Assembly (NCBI GenBank): GCA_048939245.1 | Contig: JBHLPR010000014.1 | Location: 1 to 44,041, forward strand | DNA from: Promethearchaeota archaeon | GTDB lineage: Archaea; Asgardarchaeota; Hermodarchaeia; Hermodarchaeales; Hermodarchaeaceae | Reading direction: 5' to 3' | DNA: 44,041 nucleotides | Shown: piece by piece, positions 4,537-39,018 of the stretch | Position numbering within the stretch: the stretch's first letter is position 1 | Layout: every line of letters begins with the position of its first letter | The notes under the pieces: model-generated | The model's input: only the letters and a program-made list of their open reading frames with translations | Told to the model about the DNA's origin: nothing | The model's database searches: none | Position numbers and translations under genes: made by a program

Positions 4537-5103
4537 ATGGTGAGTGTTGTGATTACTGATAAGCAATTTGATTATCTTAAACGGCTTATTCAGCGTCGAG
4601 GGTATGAAATTACCAAACGGGTGGAAGGAGAAAAAGAAGGGATTATTGACATTCACGCAAAATCCACAAAGAAAAAAATTAAAGATACGCTTTTGATTCG
4701 CGTTATTCTTGACACTCCTAGTGTCGGGGTTGAGATTTTAAGGAATACCATTAAAGAGCGGGATAAGGGCGAGTTCACCCACGCCATCATTATTGGCGGA
4801 GAACGTTACACCTATGCTGCCCGGCGTGAAGCCAAGGAAATGGATGTCGAACTCTTACATCGTCGCTTTCTCTCGATTGACCTCTTTTTACATGATTTGG
4901 TTCCTGAACATGATATCATTACCGATAAGGAGATCGCGGAAATTGAGCAAGAATACGGAATCGGTCGGGAACAATTACCAAAAATCAAAGCAGGAGATCC
5001 TGCGGCAAAAGCAATTGGTGCTCGACCTGGTGACGTAATTCGCATTGTACGTGGATCTGAAACTGCAGGGCGCCATGTTGTTTATCGATACTGCATTGCC
5101 TAA
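4537..5103 (+). CDS. rpoH: RNA polymerase subunit H/Rpo5 with an extra N-terminal Mrr-like (Rpb5 jaw-like) domain
   Basis: C-terminal HDLVPEHDII...QLPKIKAGDPAAKAIGARPGDVIRIVRGSETAGRHVVYR is canonical Rpo5; there is a ~110-aa N-terminal extension. Confidence 0.92.
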   Translation: MVSVVITDKQFDYLKRLIQRRGYEITKRVEGEKEGIIDIHAKSTKKKIKDTLLIRVILDTPSVGVEILRNTIKERDKGEFTHAIIIGGERYTYAARREAKEMDVELLHRRFLSIDLFLHDLVPEHDIITDKEIAEIEQEYGIGREQLPKIKAGDPAAKAIGARPGDVIRIVRGSETAGRHVVYRYCIA

Positions 5104-20829: not shown

Positions 20830-20864
20830 GGTATATCATAGTATGACAGCTAGTTACTTAAGGA
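20830..20864 (+). repeat. 35-bp direct repeat, copy 1
   Basis: GGTATATCATAGTATGACAGCTAGTTACTTAAGGA; one mismatch to 22983-23017. Confidence 0.95.
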
Positions 20865-22982: not shown

Positions 22983-23017
22983 GGTATATCATAGTATGAC
23001 AGCTAGTTTCTTAAGGA
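22983..23017 (+). repeat. 35-bp direct repeat, copy 2 (upstream of the hydrogenase gene; possible promoter/operator)
   Basis: GGTATATCATAGTATGACAGCTAGTTTCTTAAGGA with an internal TCATA-G-TATGA palindrome; ~50 bp before ATG 23069. Confidence 0.95.
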
Positions 23018-23068: not shown

Positions 23069-24274
23069 ATGGCCAAAACACCCACAACCATGACCATCCC
23101 CATCGGTCCCCAACACCCCGCACTCAAAGAACCCGAAAACTTCACCCTCACCGTCGACGGAGAAATCGTCGTCGACGTCGCACCCCGAATCGGTTACGTC
23201 CATCGGGGGATCGAAAAAGCGTTTGAAAGTCGAAGTTATAGTCAAAACGTCTATCTCGCGGAACGTATTTGTGGCATCTGCTCGCAATCCCACACCACTT
23301 GTTATGTGCAAGCTGTCGAGGAGATCCTCGATTTAGATGTCCCAAAGCGGGGCCTCTACATTCGCGGCATCATGAATGAATTGAACCGGATTCACAGCCA
23401 CATTCTCTGGCTTGGCGTTGCAGGTCACGAAATCGGATGGGACACCCTCTTCCATTATTCATGGCGTGACCGCGAATACAGCCTCGATATCATCGAAGAA
23501 ATCTGTGGAAACCGCGTCAACTACGCCAACAACATCATCGGCGGCGTCCGCCACGATGTCCAAAAAAGCCAAATCCCAGGCATGGTGGAACGCCTCGAAA
23601 AAATCCGCGACCGCATGCACCACTACCTCGACCTAATCCTGAAAGAACAAACCATCCTAGACCGGGCCCTCGGCGTTGGCATCCTCGACACCGAAACCGG
23701 CAAAGCCCTCTGCGCCACCGGCCCCACCGCCCGCGCCTCCGACATCCACTGGGACGTCCGCAACACCCAACCCCGCACCCCCTACCAAGAAAGCGAAAAC
23801 AAACACTGGGAAACCCGCACCTCCGACCTCTGCGACGTCGCCGGCCGCGTCGTCGTCCGCATCCTCGAAACCGTCGACGCCTGCACCTGCTGCATCCACT
23901 GGCTCCAACACCTCCCCCCCGGCGACATCAGCATCCGCGCCCCCCGCCGCGTCCCCCCCGGCCACGCCCTCAGCACCTTCGAAGCCCCCCGCGGCGAAGT
24001 CCTCCACTACGTCGTCAGCAACGGCACCGACAAACCCGAACGCCACAAAGCCCGCGCCCCCACCCTCGGCAACATCCCCAGCGTCGTCGAAATCCTCAAA
24101 GGCGGCAAAATCGCCGACGTACCCATCGCCCTAGCTAGTATAGATCCCTGCTTTTCATGTACTGATAGGATTATTCTCGCGTATCCCGATGGTTCGAAAG
24201 AGGAGAAGCCGTGGGCGTGGTTCCAAGAAAAGAGCCGCGAAGAGAGAGAAAAAGTGAAAGTTTGGCACCGTTAG
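23069..24274 (+). CDS. Group 4 [NiFe]-hydrogenase large subunit (Mbh/Ech/Hyc-like), solitary
   Basis: GPQHP, GYVHRGIEK, L1 motif ERICGICS, EAPRGE, L2 motif DPCFSCTDR plus a C-terminal extension. Confidence 0.92.
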   Translation: MAKTPTTMTIPIGPQHPALKEPENFTLTVDGEIVVDVAPRIGYVHRGIEKAFESRSYSQNVYLAERICGICSQSHTTCYVQAVEEILDLDVPKRGLYIRGIMNELNRIHSHILWLGVAGHEIGWDTLFHYSWRDREYSLDIIEEICGNRVNYANNIIGGVRHDVQKSQIPGMVERLEKIRDRMHHYLDLILKEQTILDRALGVGILDTETGKALCATGPTARASDIHWDVRNTQPRTPYQESENKHWETRTSDLCDVAGRVVVRILETVDACTCCIHWLQHLPPGDISIRAPRRVPPGHALSTFEAPRGEVLHYVVSNGTDKPERHKARAPTLGNIPSVVEILKGGKIADVPIALASIDPCFSCTDRIILAYPDGSKEEKPWAWFQEKSREEREKVKVWHR

Positions 24275-24291
24275 TGATTCAGCCTCTAATC

Positions 24292-26508
24292 CTAGAGTAC
24301 CCTTTCCATTCCTAGATTTGACTTCCCTTTTCGTTCAATTGACTTGAGGGATTTTTTCTTTTGATATTCTTTAATCCATTCAAGAGCCGCTTTTCTTTTC
24401 TCCCCAGAGCTTGGTGGAGTTATGATTGCCCAGCGATAGGTATCATTTTCGGATTTAGTATAGATTTCCCAGATTGCTGATACACGATTGGTTTCATGGA
24501 GAATGATTTTTTTAAAGATCGATGTCATTTGAATGCCTAGGCTTTTGATTAGGTTTTTTTCATCTTCAAGAAGTTCACAAGGATGGTTTTTGATAATTCG
24601 TCTTAATTCCCTGGCTATTTGTTCATCGTTTTGTGTCTTAGCTTGAGACTTTAGTTTATCTAGCCTCCCCTTCAATATTTCCAATCGTTTTCTGGGTTTA
24701 TCATCTCGTATGACTTCATATCTCTCTATACCATACTTCTGGATGAATTTCTTATGTCTATGTGTGATCTTTGGTTGATATCTATACAGCTTGGTTTTGG
24801 GTCCTGCATCGAGTACATGAGCACGTTTGATTCCGAATTTCATTTGCCCATTTCTTTTAACAAAAAACCCATCTTCGGGGACAACTTCAGCAAGATAAGC
24901 AGATTTCACCTCAGACGTACCTTGTTTAATGGTTTGTGGTAAACGAAAATTGGGGCTGAGTAGTTTGTCACCTTTGGGAACACCCCAGTGTTCGAGTAGC
25001 CGACCGACTACTGCTGTTATTGTGAGACGTTTTCGTTTCCCTGCTAGTTCTTCGGTTTTGTAGTCGGTTTCACCGAGTTTGCGGAAGAGTGTTCGGACGT
25101 ATTCGATTCGATCTTCGTCTTTTTCATGATAGGTGAGAACGTGGGTGTTTTTGTTAATGTGGCAGTCGCTGAGGGCGATGGCGATGAGTCGTGCGCGGAG
25201 TTCGTTGAGCTGGTTACCTTCGGGGAAGTGGGGGTTGTGGATGCCGCCGCTGTGTTTGGTGTTGCTGATGCGGCCGATGTGGGTGATGTGGGGTTTGATG
25301 GTGTCGAATGGTTGGTTGGTGACATTGAGGAGGAGATGGAGAGTGTCCCCGTAAAGGTATTGACTGTATTTGGTGGACCAGAGTTCGTAGGGAATGGCGC
25401 GTGGATTGTAGGCTCGATGGCGTGTATGTTCGGTGAGTTGGTCGAGGAGTTGGCCGAGTTGTTGGGTGTTGACGTTGAGGTGGCGTTGTGCGGTGCTGAT
25501 GAGCCGTTCTTTGGTTTTGGGTGTGAGGTAGAGGAGTTCGTGGTGGTAGGTGTTGAGCCAGTGGTCGGGGTGGGTAGTTTTGCGCCATAGGTAGAGGGTG
25601 TCGTGGTCGATGGCGAGGCGGAGTTCTTCGTGGGTTTGGGTGAGGTTGAGGTGGTGGGTGAGGGTGTGTTCGAGGGCGGTTCGGTGATTACGAATGGATT
25701 GAGCGATGGTGCGGAGGTGTTGGGGGCCTCTTTTGTGGTAGGGTTTGAGTTCAGCGATGATGAGCCCTTGGTCTTTGCAGTGGTGGTAAAGGGTTTCGAT
25801 GCAGGAGGCAAGAGCTTCAGGAGTGGGTGTTTTGGGGTGGTCGAGAAGGAATTTGCAGGTGGTGTAGACAAGGGAAGGGTCAAGGATATGTTCTTTGGCT
25901 TCGGGGGGGAAGTGTTGTTCCCAGTGTTGGCGGGCGTGTTCGTGGATGTGGAGGGTGCGTTCGAGGTGGGGTTCTTTGATGTGTTGGTGCCAGTCGCGGA
26001 GGCGCCCGGTGGGGATGCCGGTGATGGTTGCGAGGGCGGTGTAGGTGGTGTTGGTGAGGCGGCCGTCGTGGCGGGCGGCTTGGAGGGTGCGGTGCCAGAG
26101 AGCATGGGTGTAGGCGTGGGGGAAGGAGGGGCGTGATGCGAGGTAGGGGTGGCGGTGGAGGTCGTGTTCGAGGCTTTGCCAGGCGGTGCGTCCATAGGTG
26201 TCGAGGAGATGTTGGGCTTCGGGGGTGGTAGCAAGGGTGGTGCGGAGGGTGGTCCAGTCGTTTATCGGATGAGTGGGGGGCATGGGTGGTTCAATAGGTG
26301 TCTGTTGAGTGGGGCTTTTATCCTCCTCAATTGGGGCGGGAGTGGTGTTGCCAGTGCTGTATTTGACTGCAGGTAGTTTGGAAATTTTGGCTAGCAGGGA
26401 GGGCACCTCTCGCAGGTGTCGCGAATTTGGGTCCTTTAAATGCGTTTTGGCTCTCTTTAAGGATGAGTGGGTTCTCTCTTGGCTTACCCACTTTTCCTCA
26501 TCTCTCAA
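24292..26508 (-). CDS. Large protein with putative HTH and two degenerate LAGLIDADG-like motifs
   Basis: ARLIAIALSDCHI and AYLAEVVPEDGFF ~100 aa apart with a typical intervening LLEHWGVPKG.K...LP; N-terminal YTALATITGIPTGRLRDW is HTH-like; start codon uncertain. Confidence 0.6.
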   Translation of the reverse strand: MRDEEKWVSQERTHSSLKRAKTHLKDPNSRHLREVPSLLAKISKLPAVKYSTGNTTPAPIEEDKSPTQQTPIEPPMPPTHPINDWTTLRTTLATTPEAQHLLDTYGRTAWQSLEHDLHRHPYLASRPSFPHAYTHALWHRTLQAARHDGRLTNTTYTALATITGIPTGRLRDWHQHIKEPHLERTLHIHEHARQHWEQHFPPEAKEHILDPSLVYTTCKFLLDHPKTPTPEALASCIETLYHHCKDQGLIIAELKPYHKRGPQHLRTIAQSIRNHRTALEHTLTHHLNLTQTHEELRLAIDHDTLYLWRKTTHPDHWLNTYHHELLYLTPKTKERLISTAQRHLNVNTQQLGQLLDQLTEHTRHRAYNPRAIPYELWSTKYSQYLYGDTLHLLLNVTNQPFDTIKPHITHIGRISNTKHSGGIHNPHFPEGNQLNELRARLIAIALSDCHINKNTHVLTYHEKDEDRIEYVRTLFRKLGETDYKTEELAGKRKRLTITAVVGRLLEHWGVPKGDKLLSPNFRLPQTIKQGTSEVKSAYLAEVVPEDGFFVKRNGQMKFGIKRAHVLDAGPKTKLYRYQPKITHRHKKFIQKYGIERYEVIRDDKPRKRLEILKGRLDKLKSQAKTQNDEQIARELRRIIKNHPCELLEDEKNLIKSLGIQMTSIFKKIILHETNRVSAIWEIYTKSENDTYRWAIITPPSSGEKRKAALEWIKEYQKKKSLKSIERKGKSNLGMERVL

Positions 26509-28744: not shown

Positions 28745-28842
28745 AACAGGAGCATCTTAATGTACTCCAAGGAAGACTCTGGGCGTTGTTCCAGTAAAAT
28801 AGTGGGGAAGAACTGGAACGCGTCAAGGCGTGGCGGCGTTAG
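28745..28842 (+). repeat. Degenerate copy 1 of the hydrogenase 3' end
   Basis: NRSILMYSKED / WALFQ*NSGEELERVKAWRR* versus DRIILAYPDGSKEEKPWAWFQEKSREEREKVKVWHR*; about 13 nt deleted. Confidence 0.8.
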
Positions 28843-28928
28843 ATAGCGTGATTTGTTTACCTACTTAGGGATCTTACTTCGGTTGTTTTGTGTGAGAGTT
28901 TGAAAGACTGTGGTAAATGCTAGTGTGG

Positions 28929-29702
28929 CTAGTGATCTGTTTCGCGGGTTTTCCATTGTTTTCCTTGGAGAGTAGGTAGACAGCGAAAGGTGGGATAGAG
29001 AAGTATGGCCCACGTGATTGTGATGAATCCAAGAAGCAGTTCGGCTATGTTGAAGGTCAACTCATTCATTACGATGAAGGGAGTAATCAGGTAGTACCAG
29101 GGGATGAAAAAGAAGATTACGGCGAGGATGATTCGGAAGAGTCCGATGAGGATCCATCCCATAAAGAATTCTCTATGAGGTCGCCAGTATGTGATGAGGG
29201 CTAAGATAAGAGCGGGAATTTCGACTAAGAAGACGGCGATGGGGAAGTAGGAGGGGACAAGGTGGGAGTGGCTGCAGCCGTAAGGACCGCCGAACACCGT
29301 TACACGAAAGTACCAGATAAGTGCGTAGGCAATAACGAGGAGAGCTGAAAGGGTTTGGAAGAGTGCCCAGATTTTTAGGCTAAGTGAGCGGTGGATACGG
29401 GACAGGTATGAAGCATCCTTTTGCACTTGTTTGATGAAGTAGAAAAGGAGAGTGCTCCCAGTGGTAATGAGAAAAACGCCAATTCCAAGGGCCCACAGCA
29501 TCACGGAAAGGAAAGTATACTTCTGATGGCAGTCCATGGAGCTCCAGAAACCACCGATATTTTGGGGGATGAACCTGGTGAAAGCAAAAGTACTGCCAAC
29601 TAAGAGGAAAATGCCGAATAATAGCATGCCTAGGATTACCAAGAATTCAAAGGTTCCGACAAGTTGTCGCTGCCTTAGCTTATCAAGTTCTATATTCAGC
29701 AC
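28929..29702 (-). CDS. Hypothetical multi-pass membrane protein
   Basis: 257-aa ORF with about six hydrophobic helices. Confidence 0.65.
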   Translation of the reverse strand: MLNIELDKLRQRQLVGTFEFLVILGMLLFGIFLLVGSTFAFTRFIPQNIGGFWSSMDCHQKYTFLSVMLWALGIGVFLITTGSTLLFYFIKQVQKDASYLSRIHRSLSLKIWALFQTLSALLVIAYALIWYFRVTVFGGPYGCSHSHLVPSYFPIAVFLVEIPALILALITYWRPHREFFMGWILIGLFRIILAVIFFFIPWYYLITPFIVMNELTFNIAELLLGFITITWAILLYPTFRCLPTLQGKQWKTRETDH

Positions 29703-29784
29703 CCATCAATTCTTGATCGATATTATAACGAACGCTTTATATTTAACTCTTTTTACGTTAAAGGCAGTAAATTCAGTTCTAAAA

Positions 29785-29910
29785 AACTTTTCAGCCATTG
29801 ATTGAAGTATTTTATCCCACCCGAATGGAAGTCAGGAAGAGAAGCATTGTGCAGGATTCCAGTAGAAGAGCTGCGAAGAACGAGATTACATGAAGGCGTG
29901 GCGGCGCTAG
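29785..29910 (+). repeat. Degenerate copy 2 of the hydrogenase 3' end
   Basis: NFSAID*SILSHPNGSQEEKHCAGFQ*KSCEERDYMKAWRR*; gap-free collinear with 24149-24274. Confidence 0.85.
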
Positions 29911-30082
29911 TCTATTAAGGCTTCAGTCGGGTTTTGACAATATTAGCCGTTGGTTACATTGCCTTACATTGGAGTTGAATTATCCAGGGTTCTATTGGGC
30001 TTGAGTTTTTCTGAGGGACCACTTTCTGAAGATTTATGTAGAGCTGACGTGAAAGTAGGGTTGTGAAGGGAGATAGCGAGAA

Positions 30083-31438
30083 GTGGAGTACGAATTGAAA
30101 AACCGAAAAACATGGATTATCGTAGTTGGGTTTCTCATTGTAGTGGCTGTTGGAGTTGGAGGGTTTCAGCAACGGATGGACTTTGTCGGTGTGGATGCTT
30201 CATCGGTTCCGTGGGCCGGTCCTCGACCCTTTTGGTCGACGATTATCGATTATAATGATCAAGGTGTTTTGTTATATCCTGAGAGGGTAATTCAAACAGC
30301 AGAGGGAGGGTATGCAGTATTATGTCGAATCACAAGCCAAAATGGGACCATATGGCTGGGTCAATTTGATGCCCAGGGCATGCTCTTATGGGAACATATC
30401 TACAAAATTGACTATCGCTGGGGAGCAGGCGCACCCAGAGGCTTTTATCAGTGTGCTGATGGAGGCTTTGCCGTTATCGGCATCACACCGAACATCCAAG
30501 GAGATTGGACACATTTTCTCATTCGGACAGAAGCTGATGGAACTCTGCGATGGAAGATGATGTTTCCTCTACTCTCGAGTAATATTGATCAGCATGGTTC
30601 TTCGGTCATCGAATGCACGGACGGAGGATTCATCATGACTGGCTGGAGAGAGTCAGAGGTGTTTCTTCACCGAATAAATCCGGACGGAGAGTATCTTTGG
30701 CATCAAGTCTACCCAGCATCTGGACAAAAAGACGTGGATTTAGTCCAATGCGCGGATACAGGTTTTGCTCTAGCAGGAAAGAATTCCACCGACTACATCT
30801 TTTTAGCTCGCATTAATTCGACAGGAGGAGTTCTTTGGAAACAGAGTTATACCTTTCCAGGTGCTGTCCAAGGTCTTCGTTTATCAGGCATGAAATTAAC
30901 CAATGATAATGGATTTATTCTGTATGGGCAAACTTATGGTCAAGGTCCGAATTCCGATGCCTTGGATATCTATCTTCTTAGAACAGATATGAATGGCTCA
31001 GAGCAGTGGAATTATACGTATGGCGGTCCGCTTTCTGATATTGTGAATGATGTCGTTCAATGTACGGATGAAGGCTTTGTGTTAATTGGCAGTACTTGGC
31101 GAAGCGGTTTGGATTTACGGGATATTTGGCTGGTTCGTACGAATGCAACCGGAATCCAAAACTGGAATTGCACCTATCCTGATCACCTTCCAAAAGGAAC
31201 GTGGGGTGTCGGCATCCTAGAGCCTGAACCCGAAGTGCTTGTGATTTGTGCAGATATTTGGAAATCGTCTTCTAGTCTTTGGTTGTTTTCAATTCCTGAT
31301 GTTTCGCCACCTGATCCAAATCTTCCCTTTCTAGGAATCCCACCTGAGCTAATACCTGCCATTGCTATTGGGCTCGCAGTAGTGGTGATAATAGTTATTT
31401 TCGCGTTTATGTGGATTCTACGTCAACGTAGAATGTAA
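30083..31438 (+). CDS. Membrane-anchored extracellular beta-propeller repeat protein
   Basis: N-terminal signal/TM; repeats of the type QC.DGGF...G and RT...G...W...Y; C-terminal TM anchor. Confidence 0.75.
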   Translation: MEYELKNRKTWIIVVGFLIVVAVGVGGFQQRMDFVGVDASSVPWAGPRPFWSTIIDYNDQGVLLYPERVIQTAEGGYAVLCRITSQNGTIWLGQFDAQGMLLWEHIYKIDYRWGAGAPRGFYQCADGGFAVIGITPNIQGDWTHFLIRTEADGTLRWKMMFPLLSSNIDQHGSSVIECTDGGFIMTGWRESEVFLHRINPDGEYLWHQVYPASGQKDVDLVQCADTGFALAGKNSTDYIFLARINSTGGVLWKQSYTFPGAVQGLRLSGMKLTNDNGFILYGQTYGQGPNSDALDIYLLRTDMNGSEQWNYTYGGPLSDIVNDVVQCTDEGFVLIGSTWRSGLDLRDIWLVRTNATGIQNWNCTYPDHLPKGTWGVGILEPEPEVLVICADIWKSSSSLWLFSIPDVSPPDPNLPFLGIPPELIPAIAIGLAVVVIIVIFAFMWILRQRRM

Positions 31439-31451
31439 CCCCGAACTATCA

Positions 31452-31562
31452 GACAGGATTATCTTAGCATATCCTGATGAGTCGAAAGAGGTGAAGCCGT
31501 TGGCGGGGTTCCAGGAGAAGGATCGGGAAGAGTGGCAAAGCGTGAAGGCGTGGCGGCGGTAG
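31452..31562 (+). repeat. Degenerate copy 3 of the hydrogenase 3' end
   Basis: DRIILAYPDESKEVKPLAGFQEKDREEWQSVKAWRR*; 26/36 residues identical and gap-free versus 24164-24274. Confidence 0.92.
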
Positions 31563-31732
31563 CTAGTTCTCTACGTCCCGCGTTGGAGACCGCATGAGAA
31601 GCCAGTGCGAGTTCATTGTAGGTGTTGTCTTGGTGGTTTGCGCGATTCTAGCTGACCCAGAATGTAATTGTAGGTGCTCTTAGGAGAGTAGAGAAGGATC
31701 TGTGTTCTGGCAATTGCTTTCAAGATAATGGG

Positions 31733-32203
31733 TCAGGCCTTGAGGTGGGTGGCGATGTGTTTTCCGAAATCGGTGCATTTGGAGAATTCGCCTTCTGTGA
31801 TGGGTCCTTTCATTCCGTCAACTTGTATTGATAGGCCGGGTGTTATGAGTTTTAGTGTGGGAGCTTTTTCGCGTATTCGGGTCTCCATTTTCTTGACGGA
31901 TTTTTCGAAGTCTTCGCCTAGATAGGTGTCGAATACAGCTGCCCATTTTGCTTTCAAGTCGAGTTTGCCAAGTTTATCAATGAGCTTATTGATGCCCCTA
32001 GCGGGTCCTCCAAAATGTGTGGGGGTCCCAATCAATATTGCATCATAATCGACCATCTTTTTGGGATCGGTGTTCTTGACATCACTGATAGTAGTTTCTA
32101 TTCCCTCGACTTCGTTTAGTCCCTCCGCGATTTTTTCGGCTACCAGCTTTGTGTTGCCATACTTTGTATCATACACGACGAGAACCGTTACCATTGCGTT
32201 CAC
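31733..32203 (-). CDS. Flavodoxin-family protein
   Basis: VVYDTKYGNTKLVAEKI, YDAILIGTPTHFGG, AVFDTY. Confidence 0.9.
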   Translation of the reverse strand: MNAMVTVLVVYDTKYGNTKLVAEKIAEGLNEVEGIETTISDVKNTDPKKMVDYDAILIGTPTHFGGPARGINKLIDKLGKLDLKAKWAAVFDTYLGEDFEKSVKKMETRIREKAPTLKLITPGLSIQVDGMKGPITEGEFSKCTDFGKHIATHLKA

Positions 32204-32327
32204 CAGTCATGAAGGTTATTTTCTGAGTTTTTATGATTTACGGGAGAAACTACTATTAGTACAGGACTTTTCTGGTCTTAATCGTCATAAGTCTCAAGGA
32301 ACTAGAGAACAATTTGTACGATGTACC

Positions 32328-32453
32328 TGTTTTTCGTGTAGGGATTGTGTCATCTTAGCTTATCCTGAAGGTTCGAATGAGGAGAAGGCATGGGCGTGTT
32401 TTCAGGAGAAGAGTCGGGATGAGCGTGAATGTTTGTAGGTGTGGCGTCGATAA
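32328..32453 (+). repeat. Degenerate copy 4 of the hydrogenase 3' end
   Basis: CFSCRDCVILAYPEGSNEEKAWACFQEKSRDERECL*VWRR*; 29/41 residues identical and gap-free versus 24149-24274. Confidence 0.93.
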
Positions 32454-32558
32454 GTGTCTCTGGAAGAGAATAGTATGACAGTTTTGGGTTAGTAAAGGGT
32501 ATTATGAGTTAAGTTGGGAGTTGAAATCAAGGATCCTTAAGCATGCTACATCCGTTTT

Positions 32559-33830: not shown

Positions 33831-34232
33831 ATGAAGAAGACAAGCGAAGTAGCTGATAAAGACTGGAAGAAGAAACTGTCTAAAGAAGAGTATCGCGTGT
33901 TACGCGAGAAGGGTACGGAGCGTCCTTTCACGGGGAAGTATTGGAAGCACAAGGAGAAGGGTACATACAAGTGTGCGGGGTGTGGTGTGGAACTTTTTTC
34001 TTCGGAGGCGAAATTTGAGTCGGGGAGTGGGTGGCCAAGTTTTTATGAGGCGTTGGATAAGGATAAAATCGAGGAGAAAGTGGATCTGTCTCATGGGATG
34101 CGTCGGATAGAGGTTGTGTGCAAGAATTGTGGGGGGCATCTAGGCCATGTGTTTGATGATGGGCCGAAGGATAAGACCGGTTGCCGCTATTGTATTAATT
34201 CTGTTGCACTTCATTTTGAAAAGGAGGAGTAG
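33831..34232 (+). CDS. msrB: Peptide-methionine (R)-S-oxide reductase
   Basis: [35 protein letters not shown]. Confidence 0.96.
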
Positions 34233-37698: not shown

Positions 37699-39018
37699 TT
37701 AGCAGCCATCCCATCCGAATTCAGGTTGTATTTCTGTTGTGAAACTTTCAACGTGGGGTTTCAGATAAGTACCCCATTTTTCGACAGCTAGTTGTAGCTC
37801 TTTCATGTCCTTGGGGATTTCTTCAAAATTCCCACCCTGCATGTAAAGATCAACGGCTTGACGCATGGCTTTGGCTCCATCAATAGAACCATTAGGATGA
37901 GCATGCACACCACCACCAGCTCCGAGTATGATATCGGTGCCTAGCTCGTGAAGGTTCACTGGAATCATTCCGGGGTATACACCCCCTCCAACAATGGGCC
38001 AGTTGGCTTTAATGTGGTAGAAAGGTGCGCGGGAGTTGAGTGCAGAGGTGATTTCATCGAAGTAGGGCATGAAGAGTTTGCCATGGCTCGTGGGGAGAAT
38101 ATACATATCGCCTCCGCAGAGCCGGACAAATTTTGCGATGGTGGGATAGTTGAAGCCGTGGAAGCCACGATACCACATTCCTGCGCCAGCGGGATGAGCG
38201 AGGACAGGGACCTTTATAGAGGGATCTTCGGCAACATCGCGCAGAATAGTGAAGCCTGTGGCGAGGAAGTTGACATGTAGTGCATTTGCACCCATTTCAA
38301 CCATTTTTTCTGCATTTTCCAATGTACGGTGACCGTCGTCTGAGATATTAATTGTGTACAGTGTCTTTTCTCCAGTTTCGGATTCGGCTTTATCGATTGC
38401 TTCCATAACAGCTGTGATGCGGTCCTCTAAAAGGCAGTTACAGGGGGATTCCATTAGTTCATCGTCTTTAATAATATCGATTCCACCAACAGCACTTTCA
38501 TAGCATTGCTCAGCAAATACTTTGGTTTCTAGCCCCACACAAGGTTTAATCATGGTGAGTGTTAATGGTCGTTCTTTGGCTTTGAGGAGCTCGCGGACAC
38601 CTTCGACACCAAATTTGGGACCTTTGAAGGTGGCAGCAAAGGATTTGGGAAATTGAACATCTAGAATGCGAACGGCTGTATTTTTCACATAGAAAATGTT
38701 GCCTGCGATAGCCGCCATGAGATGGGCGACGGAGGGAAGAAAGTTGGCCATGGGAAAACCGATTTGGGCGATGATGTTGGTATAATCGGGACCTGGTGTC
38801 CGATAGAAGCCCAGGGTTTTTCCAAGAAATTGGCGACGAACTTCATCAGTTTCACGGGGTACACGAATCCATGTACCGGTGGTTTGTTCGATAGAGAGAC
38901 CTTCAACTATGTGAAGTAAATCTGGCTCCTGTGTTCGGATATGGAAAGTGGCGATTACATATTCGTCGGGATCAATACTTTCTCGCGTAGCTAATCCTTC
39001 GGGTTCATATTTTGGCAT
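37699..39018 (-). CDS. RuBisCO-like protein (form IV RLP)
   Basis: EQTTGTW, GPKFG, KPCVGL, DIIKDDE, AHPA, GKL, PIVGGG, GGGVHAHP; lacks the form I-III K177, R295 and S379 equivalents. Confidence 0.88.
   Translation of the reverse strand: MPKYEPEGLATRESIDPDEYVIATFHIRTQEPDLLHIVEGLSIEQTTGTWIRVPRETDEVRRQFLGKTLGFYRTPGPDYTNIIAQIGFPMANFLPSVAHLMAAIAGNIFYVKNTAVRILDVQFPKSFAATFKGPKFGVEGVRELLKAKERPLTLTMIKPCVGLETKVFAEQCYESAVGGIDIIKDDELMESPCNCLLEDRITAVMEAIDKAESETGEKTLYTINISDDGHRTLENAEKMVEMGANALHVNFLATGFTILRDVAEDPSIKVPVLAHPAGAGMWYRGFHGFNYPTIAKFVRLCGGDMYILPTSHGKLFMPYFDEITSALNSRAPFYHIKANWPIVGGGVYPGMIPVNLHELGTDIILGAGGGVHAHPNGSIDGAKAMRQAVDLYMQGGNFEEIPKDMKELQLAVEKWGTYLKPHVESFTTEIQPEFGWDGC

Follow-up and report, generated by a model that had tools for sequence, protein, structure and literature searches.

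A strand-polar codon footprint in a hydrogenase gene of Hermodarchaeota, probably left by repeated homing

A hydrogenase gene of an archaeon of the Hermodarchaeia contains a long run of codons that end in C or, less often, in A, and this run forms the left arm of a footprint with mirror-image symmetry, in which an unskewed core is followed by a right arm rich in G and T. We think it very likely that the run is one side of a strand-polar scar accumulated over many rounds of homing at the L2 motif of the hydrogenase. The full proposal, in which NucS-biased mismatch repair gives the scar its direction, is in our judgement evenly balanced. The window analysed here is positions 1 to 44,041 of contig JBHLPR010000014.1 (assembly GCA_048939245.1; 44,041 nucleotides), and its features are given in Table 1.

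The skewed run and its surroundings

The strict run spans 151 codons (23678-24130) of the forward-strand ORF at 23069-24274, and its third positions are C in 129 cases, A in 19, G in three and T in none. All three G-ending codons are TGG (at 23750, 23807 and 23900), every fourfold codon ends in C except for one GTA, and Lys, Glu and Gln are encoded by AAA (6), GAA (9) and CAA (3). These counts agree with those of the first-pass annotation, which had also described an instantaneous flip in usage at 24131; the switch is indeed abrupt, although the CTA at 24131 still ends in A and the first T-ending codon after the run is the GCT at 24134. With 51% C+A at the third positions of the genome, 148 consecutive C or A third positions would be expected by chance with a probability of ~1e-43. 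A genome-wide third-position scan, suggested at first pass, shows that the run is the longest in the genome (152 codons, the next being 75; 2,199 ORFs scanned) and that it is not unique in kind, with 109 skewed segments making up ~2% of the genome's codons. NNR codons in the left arm end in A 98 times and in G twice, and fourfold sites in genus g1 are C in 461 cases and A in 31.

The protein is intact, as had been reported, and both frame and protein are conserved. A second C-rich patch noticed at ~23069-23200 is also real, with 97% C/A in codons 15-44 vs 50% in the adjoining codons 45-74. The step at its end is clear in this genome and in L005 and L016 and is missing in several other genomes, and the patch is possibly a second, weaker site. 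Contigs from the public runs of two studies, one of which may be the source sample, contain 93-94% of the sampled words of the stretch at the contig level.

Table 1. Features of the hydrogenase locus in the window
Feature	Position	Strand	Remarks
[NiFe]-hydrogenase large subunit gene, complex-I-related (group 4-like)	23069..24274	+	401 aa, intact; PF00346 and PF00374; L1 and L2 CxxC motifs in translation
Weaker 5' C/A patch, up to conserved GYVHRG motif	23069..23200	+	
Left arm, C/A-saturated third positions	23470..24130	+	strict run 23678-24130; inner edge sharp, fades 5'
Exchangeable core without skew, 0.9 kb	24131..25047	.	hydrogenase codons 355-401 (including L2 motif) and endonuclease codons ~487-738
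Free-standing double-motif LAGLIDADG homing-endonuclease-like gene	24292..26508	-	738 codons, convergent, 17 bp past hydrogenase stop
Right arm, G/T-rich on + (C/A-saturated on endonuclease coding strand)	25048..26260	-	endonuclease N-terminal part and first motif
Displaced hydrogenase 3' tail copy, most decayed	28774..28846	+	
Displaced hydrogenase tail copy	29767..29914	+	
Displaced hydrogenase tail copy	31446..31566	+	
Displaced hydrogenase tail copy, longest	32325..32457	+	from codon 360
G/T-skewed segment in msrB-like gene (recognised by eye), past array	33908..34175	+	mirror polarity on + strand gene

The 3' tail of the hydrogenase had been read as a more recently swapped-in piece, and comparison between species bears this out. 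Identical codons shared with L001 and L002 amount to 0.86-0.90 over 248 nuclease codons of the core and 0.76-0.90 in the tail, vs 0.44-0.46 in an upstream control gene, and the core has therefore moved recently between species; the nuclease part shares 36-45% identical codons with three further species. Two findings go beyond the earlier reading: beyond the site the C/A bias turns into a G/T bias, and the swapped piece also takes in the C-terminal part of the convergent LAGLIDADG gene. The right arm is more diverged between species than the core (amino acid identity 0.73 vs 0.90).

The product of the convergent gene, whose true start probably lies downstream of the listed TTG, was grouped with LAGLIDADG proteins in an Atlas search. 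Its last 319 residues were modelled (pLDDT 88.6) as a LAGLIDADG fold with two helix-sheet domains; the top PDB matches of the model are PI-SceI and I-Tsp061I (E 2e-7), with I-DmoI at TM 0.6-0.66 by target. Two acidic residues, D448 and E545, each ending one motif helix as judged from the motif and not by superposition, are invariant in eight homologues. A Pfam profile search of the 738-codon ORF gave no match, including to the LAGLIDADG profiles, and a weak match to an intein region was obtained (E 0.0016). We regard the product as a divergent member of the LAGLIDADG family and a putative homing endonuclease. We observed that skew is lost near or between the two LAGLIDADG motifs in this gene (window 24292-26508) as well as in nuclease genes on C18, C117 and C68 of G000, which suggests domain swapping that could alter target specificity.

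The nuclease gene lies next to the hydrogenase in L001-L003, L007 and L013 and is missing there in L004, L006, L010 and L016. Four LAGLIDADG-like genes (on C32, C100, C44 and C55) have no scar of their own, and the presence of a nuclease is therefore not enough by itself. Those on C32 and C100 are homologues of the nuclease described here, and their lack of a scar counts against homing, with NucS or otherwise, as the origin of the footprint.

Cargo genes lie between the four displaced tail copies. None of the copies begins before ~codon 355, and the longest starts five to six codons after the switch in usage, which had correctly been placed ahead of the repeated segment. The repeats of the array are decayed gene tails that differ from one another at all bases, and similar arrays are found in many congeners, with one-gene cassettes between repeats that are shuffled among genomes. 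Cargo genes several kb downstream retain the polarity in whichever orientation they lie, and the same rule holds in two more arrays, behind actin and behind an Mvh hydrogenase. All the marks of a replacement 3' end are present: a foreign in-frame tail linked to a nuclease, a displaced old tail, lateral spread, and nuclease-free alleles in relatives.

We also note several features of these arrays and of the neighbourhood. The distal tail copies (window 28774-32457) are longer and better conserved than the proximal ones, the opposite of simple stacking by age. In G000, C68 and C25 carry an actin gene that is followed by a LAGLIDADG-like gene in convergent orientation and by seven or more displaced copies of the actin tail, accompanied by cargo genes, and C52:1-5362, as well as C111 and C36, carry a displaced-tail array of the Mvh-type hydrogenase large subunit, which flips at the L2 motif too. 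In the window, a 35-bp direct repeat (20830-20864 and 22983-23017) flanks a radical SAM/B12 gene, and the only further occurrence of its core in the genome is at 32470. Species differ in the gene that lies upstream of the hydrogenase. Farther away lie an Rpo5-like subunit with an N-terminal extra domain (4537-5103) and a RuBisCO-like protein (37699-39018), both recognised by eye.

Flip sites across the family and the genome

The bias is present in all 15 other Hermodarchaeota orthologues aligned, from both genera and in some over the whole gene, and it is lost at codons ~348-359; hydrogenase orthologues of Atabeyarchaeum and Bathyarchaeia are flat. The family mean of C/A is ~0.7 over the first third of the gene, reaches 0.98 at codons 295-314 and is down to 0.46 by codon 355, with outgroups at ~0.6. 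The bias of the left arm is a gradient decaying from one fixed, family-wide site just before the L2 nickel-binding motif. The alignment, which the first-pass annotation had proposed for locating boundaries, thus places a common edge, and it supports the local directional process, saturated under purifying selection, that was put forward there. The patchiness that had been attributed to mosaic recombination tracts is mostly this gradient and not a set of random tracts, although the swap of the tail is real.

Amino acid divergence of the arm relative to a control region is 2.7x in Hermodarchaeota and 1.2x in Bathyarchaeia, the latter from few sequences, and among the changes in the arm transitions are depleted (p=0.006) and C/G changes enriched (p=0.002). 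Amino-acid-changing differences at codon positions 1-2 show no A/C excess (p=0.79), in a test that selection confounds, and no directional excess was found at amino-acid-changing sites (p=0.4-0.5). The bias may stem either from mutation or from a biased conversion of variants already present.

The 109 skewed segments were called by an HMM whose emission values were set from observed patches, and their gene overlaps are coding-C/A in 76 cases and coding-G/T in 52. Adjacent opposite segments stand in the order C/A then G/T in 15 of 16 pairs, a count that includes convergent gene pairs, and inner segment edges are sharper than outer ones (p=0.004). As a rule, G and T are lost from whichever strand has its 3' end toward the site, whatever the direction of the gene, and single genes can contain a reversal of the bias. 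A change-point scan within genes was too noisy to carry weight here, giving ten C/A to G/T flips vs four in reverse at the top threshold and no difference below it. Non-coding DNA in skewed segments (1,161 bases) has a mild excess of A over T and no excess of C over G.

In the MCM gene, the C/A run ends at intein 1 and the G/T run begins after intein 2. In radA the flip lies at one motif across the family, and the radA of one congener (G007, L126:677-735) has a 59-nt insertion at the flip that folds as a canonical bulge-helix-bulge intron, whose splicing is predicted to restore the frame. Both porB paralogues of Hermodarchaeota flip at one motif, where no intein or intron insert was found among 18 genomes of the family and 14 metagenome loci, an absence that weighs against the homing reading; a bathyarchaeial porB (L385:1255-2355) has a full-length intein at the flip residue of the Hermodarchaeota porB, with the same polarity. 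From the MCM inteins, the radA intron and the porB intein residue we infer that flip sites are homing sites. Flips at conserved motifs were also seen in G000 in a gene for a proton-pumping pyrophosphatase (C93:11107-13425) and in an HdrA-like gene (C55:2-799), both genes recognised by eye. Two small GTPase genes of G000 (C86:22078-22623 and C53:47-601) flip mid-gene from C/A to G/T near a WD-GG motif with no insert, and these are candidate empty homing sites.

Repair systems and competing explanations

We propose that the nuclease of an incoming allele would cut the resident allele near codons 355-360 and that gap repair would then replace the core, with the flanks passing through heteroduplex and resynthesis at every homing round. 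In cells with NucS/EndoMS and without MutS1, G:T, G:G and T:T mismatches would be repaired in short patches and A:C, C:C and A:A would be left. On the strand that invades or has just been extended, G and T would be replaced wherever mismatched and C and A would persist, whether the mismatches arose from differences between alleles or from errors of the polymerase; purifying selection would hold the protein, and silent sites would saturate. In vitro, NucS/EndoMS cuts G/T, G/G and T/T and ignores C/C, A/C and A/A (PMC4838380); in vivo, the incoming strand is corrected by NucS in short patches (PMC11551744); and nucS is required for gene conversion in Haloferax (PMC11276520). Given this specificity and the correction of the invading strand, C and A would be kept, in the direction observed. 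Against the NucS version stand the null A/C-excess and directional tests and the amount by which C exceeds A, which Thermococcus specificity does not predict; Thermococcus EndoMS prefers T/C over A/G cutting and would favour A, contrary to the ratio of 461:31.

NucS is present in 17 of 18 Hermodarchaeota family genomes, and in the genomes tested MutS1 gave no MutS_I match and only a weak MutS_V match, the MAGs being incomplete. We compared intein flanks by scoring 50 extein codons on each side and taking upstream minus downstream as the measure. Asymmetry is 0.43-0.60 in five Asgard families with NucS and without MutS1, and -0.07 to 0.20 in five with MutS1 (exact p=0.008), albeit among families that are kin, some of them with one or two flanks per side, and in incomplete MAGs. 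Matched MCM sites agree with this contrast, and a family with both NucS and MutS1 is intermediate, three of its five matched MCM flanks being partly asymmetric. Methanomicrobia flanks give -0.03, a weak control in which several boundaries are mis-called and most come from one host gene. Bathyarchaeia have NucS in 14 of 16 genomes and MutS_I in 0 of 16, yet their mean asymmetry is only 0.13 (p=0.35), with three strong cases. This counts against the NucS version, and the repair system is therefore not sufficient; frequent homing may be needed besides. The contrast among Asgard families fits the presence of NucS and the absence of MutS alike.

That contrast is fitted equally well if the same homing scar was made by an error-prone repair polymerase misinserting G and T into the strand that it extends away from the cut, in which case it would show wherever MutS is absent and the specificity of NucS would be irrelevant. 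Misinsertion of dGTP opposite A by the polymerase would also account for the large excess of C over A, and the divergence of the arm (2.7x vs 1.2x), the depleted transitions and the enriched C/G changes speak for it. We nonetheless consider it rather unlikely, as the wobble errors are the best substrates of NucS (PMC4838380) and should be repaired, and the family with both NucS and MutS1 is still partly asymmetric. Deamination of C and A in long-lived single-stranded DNA, within a bubble that widens from the site in the manner of a replication origin or of break-induced replication, is improbable. C/A followed by G/T on the plus strand is the polarity of an origin, and cargo genes several kb downstream retain it; however, the flips are found at many loci, lie within genes where inteins and introns are inserted, and fade over no more than ~1 kb. 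The sign is also wrong for resected 3' tails, where human hotspot flanks lose C and A in our reading of PMC7615360, and G far above T is not given by deamination alone.

It is more improbable still that the array derives from a site-specific recombinase (integron-like) or a retroelement, with the skew as a by-product of that pathway. The shuffled one-gene cassettes between repeats are in its favour, as is a tyrosine-recombinase-like ORF on C82 (recognised by a crude motif). Conservative site-specific recombination involves no flank resynthesis, and the same scar lies beside inteins and the intron, where there is no array; the window ORFs examined included no recognisable integrase or reverse transcriptase. 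Diversity-generating retroelements remove A, which is kept here while G and T are lost, and with tail copies that differ at all bases such an element is rejected. Translational selection for C- or A-ending codons in a highly expressed gene deserves almost no credence, even though several scarred genes are core metabolic and strong segments are more often coding-C/A than coding-G/T. Saturation in highly expressed genes had been named beforehand as what would overturn the first-pass reading, and it is not seen there: fourfold C is at its background level (0.16-0.33) in ribosomal proteins, thermosome and RNA polymerase, and the bias follows the strand and reverses within genes, which rules such selection out. 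An artefact of assembly or sequencing might be suspected in a fragmented MAG whose stretch was compared with contigs, but its probability is negligible, and it is rejected on the bias in fifteen other species' assemblies, the presence of the stretch in the runs of two studies, and the conserved frame and protein. GC-biased gene conversion is rejected too, G being expected at the NNR codons of the arm.

Comparison with known systems

In GC-biased gene conversion, a bias in heteroduplex repair can push silent sites toward fixation near recombination sites. That process treats both strands alike and would place G at NNR codons, where we find A. With somewhat less than even confidence, we put forward the homing scar as a strand-polar counterpart: in cells that rely on NucS and not on MutS for mismatch repair, each homing or break-repair event would drive the break-facing strand to C and A, some 1 kb of silent flank would be rewritten, and the flip would map past and present homing targets, including empty ones. 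The mismatches repaired and ignored by NucS/EndoMS (PMC4838380, PMC11551744) predict that the corrected strand loses G and T, although not C far above A. In the papers found, NucS is not tied to homing or to base composition, and in literature that mostly excluded subscription journals we found no description of a saturated strand-polar footprint or of its link to a repair system.

The flip locates target sites of selfish elements from a single genome, and it pointed to the radA intron and the porB intein site, both of them known from other genomes only. Should NucS be the cause, this would give it a testable in vivo role in archaeal recombination and would amount to a strand-polar, repair-driven force on base composition. 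Nucleotide trees and inferences of expression can be misled by the conserved marker genes radA, MCM, polD and actin of these Asgard archaea, whose codon saturation is convergent and whose ends have been swapped laterally.

The free-standing nucleases of fungal mitochondrial atp6, cox2 and rps3 (PMC4019555, citing Allomyces and Ophiostoma) are alike in having a nuclease beside the end of a conserved gene, an in-frame foreign C-terminus, displaced old C-termini and transfer between species. The present case differs in its archaeal chromosome, its convergent nuclease, a core with only part of the nuclease, and cargo between the tails, and we saw no strand-polar flank bias described for the fungal genes. 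Human meiotic breaks (PMC7615360) also show a mirror-image footprint around a programmed break; as we interpret it, the sign is opposite, the 3'-tail strand losing C and A, and the effect, ascribed to translesion synthesis and deamination, is a modest rate excess that falls short of saturation. As here, the homing footprint that mobile mitochondrial introns leave on host exons decays with distance (Repar and Warnecke 2017, PMC5378118). Theirs is an elevated density of SNPs, with many at the boundary, within 20 nt, whereas the footprint described here is directional, strand-polar and saturated, and extends over 0.5-1 kb.
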